From Octopus sinensis (lineage: Eukaryota), in contig NC_043001.1 in assembly GCF_006345805.1 (NCBI RefSeq), positions 94,178,001 to 94,242,000 of the forward strand: DNA of 64,000 nt. Direction: 5' to 3'. Below are positions 19,317 through 51,610 of this stretch, in pieces. Within the stretch, counting starts at the first letter, position 1, and each line of letters begins with the position of its first letter. The translations under genes and the position numbers were made by a program. The notes beneath the pieces are model-generated. The model was not told the origin of the DNA. It did not search any database and saw nothing but the letters and a program-made list of their open reading frames with translations.

Positions 19317-20305
19317 ATGTATATTAAACACGAGGAGCAAACAACGAGAAAATTTACGATTACTCTAATTATCAACCTTAGCAATTTCCGAATGTCTCAT
19401 CTCGTGAATGTATATGCTTAACATATCGAGGATCACATCATAAAGTCTGGCTTCTCCATTAAGATACTGAAAATACTTCACGCACAATAATCATTGTCAT
19501 ACTACAAATAAGTTGGGAAGTCTACAAGAGCGTATTGTTTTCATATATGAGACGTTGCTGCAGCGGTTGATGCTGCTGGTGGTGCGCAAAGGTATTCTCG
19601 TCTGCATTCAGAAGAATCCAGGCAACTAACATACTATGGCATACTGACAACCACAGCCACGTTTCAATCTCTGGCCCACAGGTGTGCTATCTCTCCTCTT
19701 CGCCATTGCAAATGTGACTGGCAGCGATCTAAGCATTCTTATCTCTCAGACATTCTTGACTTGCCGCACTTCTTACCTCGCTCAAATTTTCCTGGTCCCG
19801 TACTAGTCACTATATTCCCTCTTTCTTTTTTTTCCAAATCGATGCATGCCTGAGAAGCCTCTCGCATCATATGTTCGCGCAGGTGTTTGTTTGCAATGGT
19901 TCAAGAAGAACTTTTAGCGAATTTTATCTCAACAGTTTTTCAATGGCCTGTGAAATCTGCGGCTAGTTCTTCGTCCTCCAGTCAGAGTAAGTGGAAGGAA
20001 ATCTATCAGTAGTTTTAATCAAATCAACAAATGACACATTGCAGAAATATTTTCTTTGTGAATGATGTCAATTAGTGATCAAAACGCTTTTTTGTACTAA
20101 TTTTATGCATCCAGAAAATAAAAACTTAAAATATAATTTGTAAACATAAAACGTATGAGCGTCATACACTGAAATGTGGCAACATTAGATTGATAAAAAA
20201 GAATTCTTTCAATGTAATCAGACAACTTGTTATCGTGTTGTACGAAATCAAATACTTCGAGACAGGTTTGTTTATCCAGCTGGATCTCAATAAAGTTTTG
20301 TCAGA
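19317..20305. repeat. Left arm of ~990-bp inverted repeat
   Basis: Reverse complement of 23357-24346 with only about four differences seen. Confidence 0.95.
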
Positions 20306-23356: not shown

Positions 23357-24346
23357 TCTGACAAAACTTTATTGAGATCCAGCTGGATAAACAAACCTGT
23401 CTCGAAGTATTTGATTTCGTACAACACGATAACAAGTTGTCTGATTACATTGAAAGAATTCTTTTTTATCAATCTAATGTTGCCACATTTCAGTGTATGA
23501 CGCTCATACGTTTTATGTTTACAAATTATATTTTAAGTTTTTATTTTCTGGATGCATAAAATTAGTACAAAAAAGCGTTTTGATCACTAATTGACATCAT
23601 TCACAAAGAAAATATTTCTGCAATGTGTCATTTGTTGATTTGATTAAAACTACTGATAGATTTCCTTCCACTTACTCTGACTGGAGGACGAAGAACTAGC
23701 CGCAGATTTCACAGGCCATTGAAAAACTGTTGAGATAAAATTCGCTAAAAGTTCTTCTTGAACCATTGCAAACAAACACCTGCGCGAACATATGATGCGA
23801 GAGGATTCTCAGGCATGCATCGATTTGGAAAAAAAAAGAAAGAGGGAATATAGTGACTAGTACGGGACCAGGAAAATTTGAGCGAGGTAAGAAGTGCGGC
23901 AAGTCAAGAATGCCTGAGAGATAAGAATGCTTAGATCGCTGCCAGTCACATTTGCAATGGCGAAGAGGAGAGATAGCACACCTGTGGGCCAGAGATTGAA
24001 ACGTGGCTGTGGTTGTCAGTATGCCATAGTATGTTAGTTGCCTGGATTCTTCTGAATGCAGACGAGAATACCTTTGCGCACCACCAGCAGCATCAACCGC
24101 TGCAGCAACGTCTCATATATGAAAACAATACGCTCTTGTAGACTTCCCAACTTATTTGTAGTATGACAATGATTATTGTGCGTGAAGTATTTTCAGTATC
24201 TTAATGGAGAAGCCAGACTTTATGATGTGATCCTCGATATGTTAAGCATATACATTCACGAGATGAGACATTCGGAAATTGCTAAGGTTGATAATTAGAG
24301 TAATCGTATATTTTCTCGTTGTTTGCTCCTCGTGTTTAATATACAT
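23357..24346. repeat. Right arm of ~990-bp inverted repeat
   Basis: Reverse complement of 19317-20305. Confidence 0.95.
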
Positions 24347-24999: not shown

Positions 25000-25029
<30 letters not shown>

Positions 25030-25037
<8 letters not shown>

Positions 25038-25410
25038 AAAGGGCTTAGTAAAATAAATACTTTGCCGCATACTGAACTCATTAGAAATAGCAGCTAAAAA
25101 ACTTTTTTAAGGCTATTTCTAATACTTAAAGAAAATCTCTCTCATATATAGTGTTTGCTTAATTCAACTCACAAGTTGAATTAAGCAACACTATATATGA
25201 GAGAGATTTTCTTTAAGTATTAGAAATAGCCTTAAAAAAGTTTTTTAGCTGCTATTTCTAATGAGTTCAGTATGCGGCAAAGTAATTTATTTTACTAAGC
25301 CCTTTTATATAATGTAATAATTTGAATTCGCCTTGAATGGTCCCTTTGCATACTGAACACTTGGTGAAATTGATTAATAATTAATTAATTTTGCCCTCAA
25401 TTGTTGAAAG

Positions 25411-25469
<59 letters not shown>

Positions 25470-25847
25470 TATATAAAAGGGCTTAGTAAAATAAATTACT
25501 TTGCCGCATACTGAACTCATTAGAAATAGCAGCTAAAAACTTTTTTAAGGCTATTTCTAATACTAAAGAAAATCTCTCTCATATATAGTGTTTGCTTAAT
25601 TCAACTCACAAGTTGAATTAAGCAAACACTATATATGAGAGAGATTTTCTTTAAGTATTAGAAATAGCCTTAAAAAAGTTTTTTAGCTGCTATTTCTAAT
25701 GAGTTCAGTATGCGGCAAAGTAATTTATTTTACTAAGCCCTTTTATATAATGTAATAATTTGAATTCGCCTTGAATGGTCCCTTTGCATACTGAACACTT
25801 GGTGAAATTGATTAATAATTAATTAATTTTGCCCTCAATTGTTGAAA

Positions 25848-25848
<1 letters not shown>
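25030..25848. mobile_element. Two tandem copies (25030-25410, 25468-25848) of a fold-back element: ~284-bp hairpin plus ~97-bp tail, within (TA)n
   Basis: Centre ttcaact-caca-agttgaa; tail ends ttgccctcaattgttgaaag. The copies differ only by single-base indels. Confidence 0.8.
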
Positions 25849-25890
<42 letters not shown>

Positions 25891-26724
25891 ATATGTATGT
25901 ATGTATATATATATGTACATATATGTATATATGTATATATATACACACACTTCCGCACACACGTACATACAGCACACACACACACCACACACACACATAT
26001 ATCAATCATTGATATACGCATAAACATTTAAATACTGTTCTTACACAAAGCGAAGAATGTATACATTGTGAATTTTCAATTTTTCACTAAGCCGTTCAAA
26101 ATATCTTTCTTTATCTTACTGAGTATATAAAGAAATATGATAAAAATATATCTCCGGTAAATTCCATCCACGTAATTACTATGTCACTTATCTCTCTATG
26201 CCAATACTCTTATTGGTTCAGAGTATTACGTGAATTATACTAATATTGTATTTAAATAGAGTGAAATCTTGTTCGATACATATTTCTCGTGAAAGCAATA
26301 ATCTCGGAGATTAGTGGCAGAATGCAACATATTAACGTTGTGGTAATATGTTTAGGAGTCTAAATAGTATTAACAGGCGTAAATAATAGGAAAAATGACA
26401 TTAGAAAGAGTTATTAATTGATAATCAAATTTGTTTACCGGACTTCAAATGTACATCTGTTTGAATGATGTGGTTTCGCTTATTACATTCGTGAAGCTCA
26501 TTTATCAACACGACTTGAATCATAGTTAAGCGTGCATTCACTCTCTGAGAATACGCCCAGTAATATATCCACGCCGATTTAAACCTTCCTCGATAAAGTA
26601 GTCACATATTTAAAGAAAATTTATATAAGTACTTTTAGTATTAAGTACAGAAGCAACAAAATCAACAGACTATGATTGTATATTATATATATCAATGAAA
26701 AATCACGTGCATCTTGTATATATA

Positions 26725-28795: not shown

Positions 28796-29810
28796 TCATA
28801 AACTTAGTCACATATTTCCGTATTATTGAAATATATCTCTTAATATCGACAATTGTATTTAAAAGCTAGATTAACTCCCTCCTACATCACGTATATTGAA
28901 ACAGAAACAATGATTTGTTATAAGAATTGAAACACACCTAAGGGATTTTCGTCTTGTAATTGCACACAGAATCTCACCCTGGTGAATCGAAGCCTTTCAA
29001 CTCTGATGATGTGTAGGATGCTACCGTTTTGGCTATATGTATATATATATATATATGTCTTACGTATATTTGATGTATATTATTGCAATATCTCAAATTT
29101 CATGACCTCTGCCTTTACAACATATGTCATTGACTAAATGATTGAAAAAGACACAGTTATGGCTCTCATCATGTGCTAAGCACTATTATTAATAGAAACA
29201 ACCAAAGCCAATCAAAACCGTCTATATATTACTAAAATAGTAATTTGTAAATTATCTACTGCTGATAGACATAATGGCGTATTTCTTGAAGAGAAAAAAA
29301 TGGTTAACACCTGTTGTATGCTTTATAATTTCAGATATTATTCATAATATTTGCACATCATATATTAGGTATTGAAAAATAATATATCCGTCTGCAATAT
29401 TTCATTGAATTACGATTAAATTAAACATGTCTAATAAATTAAAATAACCAAATTATATATATATATATACAGCCAGTTCGGCTCCTCTTGACACTACACG
29501 TTCAGAAATGCTGGCTCCCTAAGATATTATTTCATTATGTCAAGTTTCATGTCTGGAAACATTCTGTTTAAAATATTCAAGAGATTAATAAATATTACTT
29601 ATTTTTACTGCTTTCCTATAAAAACAAAATTTGATGAAAGATTATTATAATAAATTCAATGGTCATTGAAGTCTTCATCACCAATTAATAATCGAATAGA
29701 ATTATAAAATATAATAATTTTGTCAGTATTTCTCTGCTTCTGTACAGTTAGACTTAAATATTTCCTTGTATTGACTCACAAAACACATTGCTGTACGTAT
29801 ATTCAATAAA

Positions 29811-30060
29811 TTCTAGGCGTATATACAAGGCGGCGAGCTGGCAGAAACGTTAGCACGCCGGGCGAAATGCGTAGCCGTATTTCGTCTGCCGTTACGCTCT
29901 GAGTTCAAATTCCGCCGAGGTCGACTTTGCCTTTCATCCTTTCGGGGTCGAATTATTTAAGCACCAGTTACGCACTGGAGTCGATGTAATCGACTTAATC
30001 CGTTTGTCTGTCCTTGTTTATCCCCTCTGTGTTTAGCCCCTCGTGGGTAGTAAAGAAATA
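29811..30060 (+). mobile_element. Full-length SINE family B with 13-bp TSD
   Basis: TSD tatattcaataaa at 29798 and 30061; head ggcggcgagctggcagaaacgttagc. Confidence 0.9.
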
Positions 30061-30610
30061 TATATTCAATAAACCACATGCATTCAGGAATAATCAGAAT
30101 TACATACACATATACTTATGTTTATATTCATAAAATGTATGTAGGTAAATGAGAAGGGATGTGTGTAGAACGCTTTAGTGTATAATGTAACGCGAAAGTG
30201 AAACTAGCTATTATACTGCAAGCCGTATAAAGCAATTTCAATTCTTTTTATTAAAGACTTTCTCGGTGATTTCAAATGTCTTTCGTTATGTTCACATTAT
30301 CAGCCGCTCAAGTTTCTCAAGAGATATATGTGAAACTCGGTATGAACAGTTAAATATTACCTGGAGTGAAATATATCCACTGACATATATATATATATAA
30401 ATATTTAGCACCAAATATGCTAAACATTGACGCCAAATCGTCATCACCTCGAAGAGTGTGTTCTCAAGAAATATATCCGCTGTTCTACTTTGGTTGATGT
30501 TAGTGTCAGCCACGCTATTTGTTCACTATAGTTTTTTCCCGCCCTCTTTTGTCTGGGTAAATATATTCAGTCGAGTAAAGAAACGTGTTTACAGAGAATC
30601 CTCAACAGAC

Positions 30611-31425
30611 CATAGTCATTGATGATGATGACAAAGTTGAAAGGTAACCCAGGGCGATATGGAAACTCGGACCATGCTTCTTGAGGATGAAGAGAAAGTG
30701 GAAGTTGATGTTCGCATTGTAGAGAGCAATGTGGAAGAGAAGAAAGACGATACTGAAATGAAAGAGGAATAGGATGACAATACATTTAATTTGAGACGTC
30801 CATACCCCTATCTGTAGATAATTCATAAATTAAAGCTGGAGGACATCACGGTTGCTATGTCCGAGTCGTCTGATTACAAGGATGGTTCCTGTTCGACCAT
30901 CTGATATATTAGAAATCTGGTGTTAGGAAAGGGGTCATGCGGATGAAGTTTCCTTCTGAAGAAGCTGCTGAGGTTGTGTTTAACACGCCCATAAAAATCA
31001 ATGGGAAGACCTTCGAATATGAACCTACTATTGAGGGTAACGATGGCAAAGCTAAAGATGGTAAAGGGAACAAGAACGACTATTCCCTCTATGTCAACAA
31101 CATTCCCCAAGGAGTCACAGTGAAGGAGGTGCAGGCGTTGTTCCCGCAAGCCCGGAATGTGGTGATCCCCCATAATGAGGAAGACCAGTATCAGGGATAT
31201 GCGCTTTTGGAGTGCCATTCTTACCAAGAAGCTGAGACTATGCTTGACGAGAGTAAGGAGCTGAAACTTAAGGAAAACGTCTTGACATGTGACCTGATTT
31301 TTCACTCCTCTAAAGAGGGTGATAAAGAATCGAAGAAGCAACAGAACAATCAACAAAATATAAAGGGATGCTTTTCAAGCAGTCAGAATAACTGTAACCA
31401 CCAGAGAACACACTCTTCGTGGTAA
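30611..31425 (+). pseudogene. Intronless pseudogene or retrocopy of an acidic-region + two-RRM RNA-binding protein (nucleolin-like architecture)
   Basis: From 30659: METRTMLLEDEEKVEVDVRIVESNVEEKKDDTEMKEE* with further stops and a frameshift. Then RNP1-like KGVMRMKF, and a second RRM with RNP2 SLYVNNIP and RNP1 QGYALLEC in ORF 30937-31425. Confidence 0.8.
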
Positions 31426-31585
31426 TGGCGATTTGACGGGTATGTTTAGCATATTAGGTGTCCATTTTAGTGGTCATTCCTCTTAATTTTGTATGTAACA
31501 AAACTTTTATTCTTCGAATTCTTTAAATATGCTAAGCCATTGGTATTAATTGATTAATATCAATTTATACCCTTATTATTTAATT
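31404..31585 (+). mobile_element. 3' terminus of the hammerhead-bearing element family of 42581-43197
   Basis: gagaacac…gatttgacg…gtccatttt…ttaattgattaatatcaatttatacccttatt aligns with the reverse complement of ~42585-42768; followed by (TA)n. Confidence 0.8.
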
Positions 31586-31975
31586 ATATATATATATATA
31601 TATATAATTTCTCTTCTGAAAAATGGATCTCGAAGATCCTGAAGTTATACATTGTAGGATGTAATAAATATTGAAAGGAGGGGTGCCTGTGAAATCTGAA
31701 CAGACATCTTCTGTTCACATGGTGGGAATACCTCATGTATGAGAAAATGTTTAAATTAAAGATATTGAATGCAATGCCGAGTATTTTATGGTAAGAAACA
31801 TACCAATAACTGTCGTTTATGGTTTATGGTTTTATCGGTGCTGCACTTCAGTACCAAACAACGCTGGTGAGATTATGAATGTCATTCTGTAGGAACTGTT
31901 TCGTTTGACAAATACACACACACATACAATCGTGCGCATGCTCGCACGCACGCACACAGACACAGACACACACAT

Positions 31976-42489: not shown

Positions 42490-42580
42490 GGGAGGAAGGG
42501 GAGAAGAAAAAAAATTGTGTTGATATTTATACCACTACATATATATACACAGACTTATACATGAAATATATATATATAAT

Positions 42581-43197
42581 TTAAAATTTAATAAGGGTAG
42601 ACATTGATATTAATCAATTAAAACCAGTGGTCCAGCATATTAAAAAATCAGAAGATTAAAATATATTTACATACAAAATTTAAAGGACTGATCCCTTCAA
42701 AAAGTGGACGGTCAACATGCTAGATATAGACGTCAAATCACTATTTTCGACAAAGAATATGTTCTCAAATAAATACTCAGCACAAAACCAAAGCATTAAA
42801 AATAAAAATGATTACCCATGTACTGAATCAATTTCGATTATTAATATCCGCAAGGATAAACTGTAATCTCGTCAGCATGGTCTGTCATATAGAAATACAA
42901 TTTGCAGGTCTAGATGCAAAAACGTTTGACCGGAGTCTCGCATGCATGGAGTCCAACCGATTATATTTTTGTGTATCTTTCAAATGCCTTCACTTTGGCG
43001 CGCTGAGATCGGAAAATCCACCCTGCAGCTAATAAGTAGCAGCAGTCAATTTACCGGTTAGAGAATATATTTATTTAATTAAAAATTTAATAAGGGTAGA
43101 AATTGATATTAGTCAATTAAAACCAGTGGCCCAGCATATTAAAAAATCCGAAGATTAAAATATTTTTACATACAAAAATTTAAAGGACTGACCACTC
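42581..43197 (-). mobile_element. Non-coding 1.2-mer element (499-bp unit, ~110-bp terminal direct repeats) carrying a hammerhead ribozyme; PLE pseudo-LTR or retrozyme-like
   Basis: ataagggtag at 42591 and 43090; repeats 42583-42691 and 43082-43191; short (TA)n on both sides; no credible ORF. Confidence 0.8.
42816..42880 (-). ncRNA. Intact type I hammerhead ribozyme
   Basis: Minus-strand RNA CCAUG-CUGACGA-GAUUA[caguuUAUCCuugcGGAUAuuaa]UAAUC-GAAA-UUGAUUCAG-UA-CAUGG. All core residues present, 5-bp stems I and II, GUA cleavage site predicted at 42821/42820. Confidence 0.85.
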
Positions 43198-43255
43198 ATA
43201 TATATATATTGTTATATTTCGCAATGGTCATTTCGCCAGTTTTTTTGCACAACAA

Positions 43256-46464: not shown

Positions 46465-46536
46465 TCCCACGTGGTCTAGTGGTTAGGATTCCTGGCTTTC
46501 ACCCAGACAGCCCGGGTTCGATTCCCGGCAGGGGAA
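46465..46536 (+). tRNA. tRNA-Glu(TTC)-derived sequence, probably a pseudogene or retroposed copy
   Basis: TCCCACG-TGGTCTAGTGGTTAGGATT-CCTGG CT TTC AC CCAGA-CAGC-CCGGG TTCGATT CCCGG-CAGGGGA-A. A and B boxes are intact; two acceptor-stem mismatches and one anticodon-stem mismatch. Confidence 0.85.
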
Positions 46537-49987: not shown

Positions 49988-51610
49988 AACTCAGCTACTG
50001 GCCCCGATGGATTCCCAGCAATCCTTCTAAAAGTATGTAAGAGAGTCCTAGCAAGACCACTGCAGTTCCCGTTTCAGAGCTTCCTTGCAACTGGCAAACT
50101 TCCAAGAAAACTGAAGGAAGGTAAAATATGCCCTATTCATAAAGGAGGTAGCAGAGCTGAGGCCAAGAACTACAGACCTATCTCTCTGACCTCACACATC
50201 AGCAAGGTCATGGAACGAATAGTCAGGAGGAAACTAATCACCTTCCTTGAAGAAAATGGTTTCCGACCAGGAAGAAGCTGCTTAACTCAGCTCCTACAAC
50301 ACTATGTCTGGGTGCTGAAACGACTGCTCAACCACTCAAATGTGGAAGTGATATATCTCGACTTTGCAAAGGCCTTTGATAAAGTCGATCATGGAATGAT
50401 ATGTCACAAACTGCGTGATCTTGGCATAGTTGGAAAATTGGGAGAATGGCTTCATGACTTTCTGAAGGATAGAAGTCAGGTGGTAGTAGGCAATGGGGCC
50501 ACTTCCATTAACACGCAAATAGTGAGCGGTGTTCCGCAATGCACTGTTCTGGGAACACTACTGTTCATAATGGCCCTCTCAGACATGCCCTCAGCCACGC
50601 AGAGAGCCACGATCACAAGTTATGCAGATGAAACAAAAATTTCACATGCAATACAGAACTCTGAAGACACTAAGCACCTGCAATGTGAGCTGGACAAAAT
50701 ATACAAGTGGGCTGAAAAGAATAGCATGCAGTTCAATGCTGAAAAGTTTGAAGCTTTATAATATCTGCATGAAAAACTAAATGCAATACCCAATAAATAC
50801 ACTGGACCTGGAGGGATTGCAATCCGAGAGGTACAATCAGTGCGAGACCTTGTTATTTACATGAGTGATGATGCAACCTTTCATGTGCATGTTGCTAAAT
50901 TGGCAATGAAATGTAGGCGGCTGACCGGATGTATTCTTAGAGCCTTTAGAACAAGAGACCAGGAAACCATGATGGTCCTCTGGAGGACACTTGTCCTAAG
51001 CCACTTTGATTATTGCTCTCAGCTATGGTCACCATCCAGTGTCAAGTTTATCACAGAAATTGAGGCGATCCAACGAAGCTACACGAAGCAGATAGCCTCT
51101 GTGCAGCATATAAGCTATTGGGAAAGACTCAAGAGATTGAGACTCTATTCCTTAGAGCGTAGGCGAGAAAGATATGCCATAATATACATCTGGAAGATCC
51201 TATAAGGACTTGTCCCAAACTTTGGCATCGAGAGTTACACAAATGCCAGAACTGGGAGCCACTGCATAGTGCCAAGGACTCCAAATTTGCCATCAAGATG
51301 TAGGACAAGATACCGTGATAGCCTGGGCTTCCGAGGCCCACAGCTCTTCAATATCCTCCCGAAGAACCTAAGAGACCTGCATGGGGTGGATGCAGATGTC
51401 TTTAAAATGAAACTGGATCTCTTCTTGTCAGGTGTCCCAGATGAATCAACTTCACGGCAGGAGGTGCAGATGAGTGCAGCTGCATCGAACTCTCTCATGC
51501 ACCAGATGGCAATTGATAAAAAGCATTCGTGAAGTAAAATCATGTAGCAACACCAAATGGCGGTGCCCCAGCATAGCCACAGCTTGTGAGCTGAAACTAA
51601 ATATAAAATA
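49988..51610 (+). mobile_element. 5'-truncated CR1-type LINE; reverse transcriptase pseudogene with complete 3' end
   Basis: GPDGFPAILLK, NYRPISLTSHISKVMERIV, GFRPGRSCLTQLL, YLDFAKAFDKVDH, GVPQC (QG mutated), YADE (YADD mutated) and LYSLERRRER. In-frame stops at 50759 and 51203. Confidence 0.95.

Follow-up and report, generated by a model that had tools for sequence, protein, structure and literature searches.

A spliced host mRNA fragment within a two-armed hammerhead-repeat insertion of Octopus sinensis, probably acquired through template switching by a Penelope-type reverse transcriptase

Results

The retrocopy and its parent gene

The window analysed here is the whole stretch of 64,000 nucleotides from Octopus sinensis (NC_043001.1, positions 94,178,001 to 94,242,000). 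The features of interest, listed in Table 1, stand in the order (TA)n - inverted arm - spliced 5' part of an mRNA - direct arm - (TA)n.

Table 1. Window coordinates of the insertion and of a separate copy of the same repeat
Feature	Position	Strand	Remarks
(TA)n, left end, likely target site	30385-30399		organism E contigs enter the run from the left flank and end there
Tentative: what may remain of the inverted arm's usual outer end at +94, then a 21-nt deletion	30400-30408	-	by-eye comparison with consensus
Inverted arm of hammerhead repeat, element +57 back to about -14	30409-30480	-	window self-comparison; +1 = window 31404
Copy of spliced parent exons 1-9	30478-31405	+	exon-by-exon match to G000:C27
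Starts of the nine exons in the copy	30478, 30576, 30738, 30795, 30933, 31037, 31067, 31197, 31319
GA microhomology common to parent mRNA and element	31404-31405	+	likely switch point
Direct arm (element +1 to ~+182) without hammerhead; its end is the main 3' terminus of the family	31404-31585	+	supplies ORF stop
(TA)n, right end, likely target site	31585-31606		adjoins direct arm
Separate, more distant repeat copy, 1.2 monomers, not part of the insertion	42570-43200	-	hammerhead motif at ~42875; 83% to subfamily consensus

The parent gene lies on the minus strand of contig C27 of the same genome (G000:C27 13742119-13773001), where its nine exons are spread over ~31 kb and all eight introns are GT-AG. 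In the window the nine exons are contiguous and the eight introns are precisely missing. The copy holds ~105 nt of 5' UTR upstream of the ATG, the acidic N-terminus and the RRM, and it stops in the middle of exon 9, 12 nt short of the exon end and near codon 278. Compared with the parent it shows 104 differences in 926 aligned bases (11%), and stops and frameshifts spread its coding sequence over three frames; by intron loss and disabled frame, it is a processed pseudogene. An earlier reading of this DNA, made from the sequence only, had thus correctly recognised an intronless and disabled copy of a host mRNA, though it placed the start at 30500 instead of ~30478; the acidic N-terminus and RRM that it described are there, but its second RRM is not, Pfam finding a single one. 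The parent product (P0001, 493 aa) shares the acidic N-terminus and has a single Pfam RRM and a tail rich in Gly and Gln; the nine relatives found for it were all RRM proteins, and the four with source names were all from cephalopods. A paralogue of the parent that has introns is found at G000:C5:45701397-45705248 (71-87% per exon).

The copy may reach the mRNA cap, as suggested by sequences upstream of parent exon 1 that we take to be promoter-like motifs from their consensus; the same upstream sequence can also be read as a splice acceptor, and the parent RNA contigs stop short of the 5' end. At the other end there is no poly(A), so that the mRNA 3' end with poly(A) typical of LINE-made retrocopies is lacking, and the later parent exons are absent from the whole window, including the part beyond the (TA)n. 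No RNA set was listed as carrying the retrocopy.

Layout and junctions of the insertion

From 31404 on, ~182 bp align with the 42570-43200 element on its minus strand (76%, E 2.6e-33). This is the strand that carries the hammerhead motif, and for that reason the proposal that the two are in the same sense holds. The reported homology of this ~180-bp stretch to the 42.5-kb element was likewise real, but both arms belong to a closer subfamily than that copy. As had also been proposed, the ORF at 30913-31425 takes its stop codon from within the repeat, which is followed by (TA)n and no poly(A). Mapping of the exact junction, with the intron-containing parent on C27 in hand, gave ...ACCACCAGA|TGAAT for the parent and ...TTTTCTT|GAGAACAC for the repeat, GA being present in both; this 2-nt overlap is within chance expectation. 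Splicing into the pyrimidine-rich AG of the element was ruled out, the parent having no donor there.

The inverted arm was detected in the self-comparison of the window (57 bp at 86%, E 1.4e-11). Its last 2-3 nt can be assigned either to the arm or to the mRNA, and it extends past the element point at which the mRNA joins the direct arm. Because this arm lies on the 5' side, the mRNA occupies the meeting point of two head-to-head arms; its flanks are inverted to each other, and are not co-linear LTR parts. Of the outer ends, that at +187 is clear and that at +94 tentative only. Both ends of the insertion, where a target-site duplication was looked for, fall within (TA)n. The arm ends, when folded, showed no clear signal.

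Nothing indicates that the repeat was brought along from the parent gene: no sense copy of it exists at the parent junction or in the 3' UTR, which is therefore not its source. Within the 50 kb of the parent region that was covered, there is only one substantial family copy (G000:C27:13724644-13724851). It has two arms and stands ~5.6 kb downstream of the stop codon, beyond AATAAA signals; its segment from +82 to +189 runs antisense to the gene, and the copy lacks the C variant of the window arms (see below). A contig guessed to be RNA continues past the junction as normal spliced parent. Of the proposals of the sequence-only reading, 3' transduction is not supported; retroposition by a PLE-type insertion, as opposed to poly(A) priming, is.

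The hammerhead repeat family

Candidate matches to the terminus found in the direct arm number 2177 genome-wide, with identities of 89-93% for the best. The repeat monomer is ~529 nt long, and several copies have arms longer than one monomer, i.e. tandem monomers. Twenty-five arm copies keep a hammerhead core (CTGANGA...GAAA...TA), in which stem I is present and stem III is short and largely palindromic; short palindromic stems III are read as dimer-dependent. Rfam gave no match to a hammerhead model, and it is by conservation of the pattern that the family monomer is predicted to carry a hammerhead ribozyme motif. The ribozyme is predicted to cut 82 nt upstream of the mRNA junction, at which no hammerhead is present, and a role of the ribozyme in the capture is not supported.

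We examined 120 loci, i.e. 29 chosen by similarity to the window arm, 31 chosen by an exact inverted-end pattern (after one duplicate was dropped) and 60 drawn from the first 100 of 465 pattern matches, with omission of places already included, of several close pairs and of the last few. By automated assignment, in which a few are misassigned, 80 of the 120 were two-armed and head-to-head, and 65 of these 80 had one ~+94 and one ~+187 end. The arrangement of the window locus, a +187 arm accompanied by an arm with a different outer end, was seen in 10 of the 80. Single arms abutting unrelated sequence accounted for 40 of the 120 loci. Insertion in this family typically yields a head-to-head pair of arms whose ends fall at two fixed positions, ~+94 and ~+187.

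No autonomous partner of the family was identified: the one autonomous PLE compared had a tail score of 88 against a shuffle mean of 97, a similarity not above that of shuffles. At another locus (L156:1347-3731; G000:C3:116339846-116342227), an intact ORF for a Penelope-type reverse transcriptase (RT) of 794 aa is joined head-to-head to a repeat arm that is only 84% identical to consensus. This RT family is young, with many copies at 97-99% identity and open frames of up to ~850 aa; neither a partnership with the repeat nor co-insertion was established for it. A few further joins were observed. At G000:C2:114.367 Mb (L077 and L051), an inverted arm stands head-to-head with ~260 nt that end in (TA)n and carry a different hammerhead-like motif, possibly a two-family insertion. 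At L018, L023, L107 and L021, single arms meet LINE fragments or a SINE with no (TA)n between, by co-insertion or target deletion.

One event or several

Both window arms have a C at +10, a variant that occurs in 18 of the 114 pattern-picked arm calls. Nine other two-armed copies were C/C and four C/T at this position, which gives a likelihood ratio of ~5 for a common source. If the 2177 arms were evenly spread, the probability of a separate arm within 1 kb in the required orientation would be ~4e-4, a value that clustering at (TA)n would increase. The direct arm differs from consensus at 12 of 182 positions (6.6%; the consensus was built from the copies most like it), the family median being 5.5%. 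The retrocopy compared with the parent gave pS 0.19 and pN 0.087, values that suggest ~6-9% divergence on the retrocopy branch. By these figures the ages of the direct arm and of the retrocopy are compatible. Two observations weigh against a single event: the inverted arm differs from consensus at 10 of 72 positions, more than the direct arm (p=0.08), and the two arms differ from each other by 14%, above the 90th percentile of the family (12.6%).

Both junctions are present in organism D, a close relative whose contigs cover 30452-31024 and 31140-31470. In organism E, more distant, the flanks are ~9% diverged and the left one is present up to the (TA)n. Inside the insert, the eight pieces listed of 15 are all exon-sized, the listed loose ends carry intron sequence and depth is zero at 30549-30614; among the listed pieces, organism E thus shows parent exons only. 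No organism E contig bridges the empty site, since its contigs break at (TA)n. The retrocopy differs from the organism E parent exons at 71 sites, and from the parent of its own genome at 77 of 758 over the same intervals, which would place its origin near the split from E.

Three minor points came out of these comparisons. Organism E lacks cover at 31621-31822, a region left out of the evidence. It also lacks the SINE at window 29798-30060, one contig joining 29797 to 30061. Between the window genome and organism D, the retrocopy (30452-31470) differs by 3.9-4.5% and the flanks by 2.0-2.5%, small numbers in both cases.

Search for further captures

Fillers of at least 60 nt (60-373 nt) were found in 5 of the 80 two-armed loci. 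That of L043, searched alone against the genome, gave only simple-repeat matches (the search with the whole locus was flooded by a SINE); by eye, two of the other four resembled later SINE- or transposon-like insertions and two were without identity. Short non-element fillers are present at other arm junctions. Pfam was run on 97 ORFs beside the 40 single-arm loci and gave matches in seven (two LINE endonucleases, two zf-RVT, a Mos1 HTH, a histone and a C2H2). We did not include the histone and zinc-finger ORFs among the captures, since (TA)n stands between them and the arm. No second mRNA capture was recognised in the 120 family copies; capture would thus be rare in this family, and the suggestion that it captures genes generally was not borne out.

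From the other side, a sample of Ribosomal_S2 and cyclophilin matches yielded 39 loci, for the most part ordinary exons or unplaced contigs dense in genes. The element of the window insertion was near none of them, but none was confirmed as a processed pseudogene. On some unplaced contigs (G000:C12465, C11928, C7512 and C8223) the sampled loci are without (TA)n runs, and some have ~30-nt gaps between exon matches; these contigs may be DNA of a co-sequenced organism.

Discussion

Origin of the insertion

We consider it probable that the processed pseudogene lies inside one two-armed insertion of the hammerhead repeat and was made by a Penelope-type RT that switched from element RNA onto a host mRNA. 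A borrowed PLE protein would have cut both strands in (TA)n and primed two cDNAs. Synthesis of the first would have begun at the internal +187 site and, after 182 nt of element RNA, would have passed at the GA into exon 9 of the mRNA and continued to or near its 5' end, while the other would have copied a second element template to about -14; the ends of the two cDNAs would then have been joined and the copy would have decayed afterwards as a pseudogene. Such a course would explain why the copy has its 5' end but lacks its 3' part and any poly(A), a pattern opposite to that of a retrocopy made by a LINE. The case rests on one locus.

A single insertion would also result if the piece of mRNA had been reverse-transcribed apart and then end-joined between the arm cDNAs, with no switch by the element enzyme. 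Such a patch would fit the junction overlaps of only 2-3 nt and the short fillers seen elsewhere in the family, but not so easily the orientation of the mRNA, which is that of the arm through which a polymerase moving on would come to it, or its extension to the first matched exon; moreover, a free cDNA begun in mid-exon would presumably need another primer. We regard this route as improbable, and we think no better of a chimeric RNA that preceded insertion, formed from an arm in exon 9 of a lost parent allele or by RNA ligation, the spliced read-through RNA being copied from an internal start. A 5'-complete spliced copy would then arise with no polymerase jump, and single arms with arbitrary inner junctions are indeed common (the 40 of 120 above). 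However, exon 9 is intact in G000, there is no element there in organism E or in the RNA contigs, and the junction is neither a ribozyme cut site nor a GT donor; since the inverted arm reaches back beyond +1 by ~14 nt, an ordinary element RNA would in any case have served as a second template.

These two schemes need a PLE insertion too, and a single event of the PLE type, whatever its form, is for that reason very likely. Quite different is an older, LINE-made retrocopy trimmed later by one or two independent repeat insertions, akin to the alternative kept by the sequence-only reading. The somewhat older look of the inverted arm is in its favour, and later insertions can truncate older DNA, as indicated by the single arms that abut foreign DNA and by the PLE ORF of L156 joined to an apparently older arm. 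But the presence of the inverted arm on the 5' side makes it unlikely: two rare insertions (~4e-4 per kb) would have had to land in complementary orientation with a shared minority variant, 211 codons and the 3' UTR would have vanished without trace, and all steps would be confined between the E and D splits. We give it very little credence.

Comparison with known systems

In LINE-1 systems, processed pseudogenes are spliced cDNA, twin priming uses two primers at one site and U6/L1 copies are RNA chimeras. The octopus locus differs from them in having no poly(A) and a reversed polarity of truncation; its arms overlap in sequence, which requires two templates.

Closer to the template switch favoured here are systems built on Penelope-like and LTR elements. 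In the rotifer Adineta vaga, a PLE enzyme moves host sequence in trans, framed by direct and inverted pLTRs; an NRPS gene there has kept all its introns between two direct pLTRs with a TSD, and intron retention is stressed by the authors (PMC3846280). The octopus cargo is likewise framed by direct and inverted element sequence and was presumably moved in trans by a PLE enzyme; unlike the rotifer one it retains no introns, being spliced, 3'-truncated and placed where two short arms meet in inverted orientation. LTR-mediated retroposition gives partial spliced mRNA with retroelement flanks, no poly(A) and microsimilarity at the switch points (PMC5131818), all features that it shares with the octopus locus. 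The latter departs from it in that its flanks are the inverted arms of a target-primed hammerhead repeat in (TA)n and that the overlap is 2 nt against a median of 6; Penelope goes unmentioned in the accessible text of that report (PMC5131818).

As to the machinery, the protein of PAc/Poseidon, an anole PLE, cuts and extends both strands at AT-rich DNA in vitro, starting at two fixed internal RNA sites (the 'tail') (PMC11167929). The two ends (+94 and +187) and two arms of the repeat family match these internal starts and this two-strand extension; PAc is autonomous, unlike the hammerhead repeat, and capture of host RNA is not reported for it in the sections consulted (PMC11167929). Like the animal non-LTR retrozymes, non-coding hammerhead monomers related to PLE pLTRs, the repeat has a non-coding hammerhead monomer (~529 nt here); the main text on these retrozymes contains no mention of mRNA, capture, template switch or octopus (bioRxiv 10.64898/2026.07.22.740005).

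Significance

Penelope pLTRs framing intron-containing genes were known already, as were spliced poly(A)-less retrocopies made via LTR elements. What is new is the 5' part of a spliced host mRNA between PLE-type arms, so far in a single dead copy and, on present data, a rare accident; no report of such a capture was found in full-text searches of mostly open-access papers. PLEs are on record as keeping introns, and how they insert is understood only in part. An mRNA at the arm junction is a genomic record of separate templates for the two arms, and it would mean that the enzyme can likely move onto cellular RNA. That processed pseudogenes arise repeatedly from Penelope-type RTs, as a third source next to LINEs and LTR elements, is a tentative and rather doubtful extension. 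The same caution applies to the signature that it implies, i.e. mRNA 5' ends without poly(A) clamped by head-to-head arms in (TA)n. If true, N-terminal exons would have been copied around the genome in PLE-rich animals such as cephalopods, in retrocopies missed by poly(A)-based searches; the locus offers both a signature to search for and a direct in vitro test.

Other features of the window

Elsewhere in the window, a 990-bp inverted repeat (19317-20305 and 23357-24346, 99.6%) lies near a tandem repeat (25001-25914, 97.5%), an arrangement that may be a young two-armed insertion. A tRNA-like match at 46465-46536 (Rfam, 51 bits) recurs in part at 51554 and 53339 and is possibly the head of a SINE.
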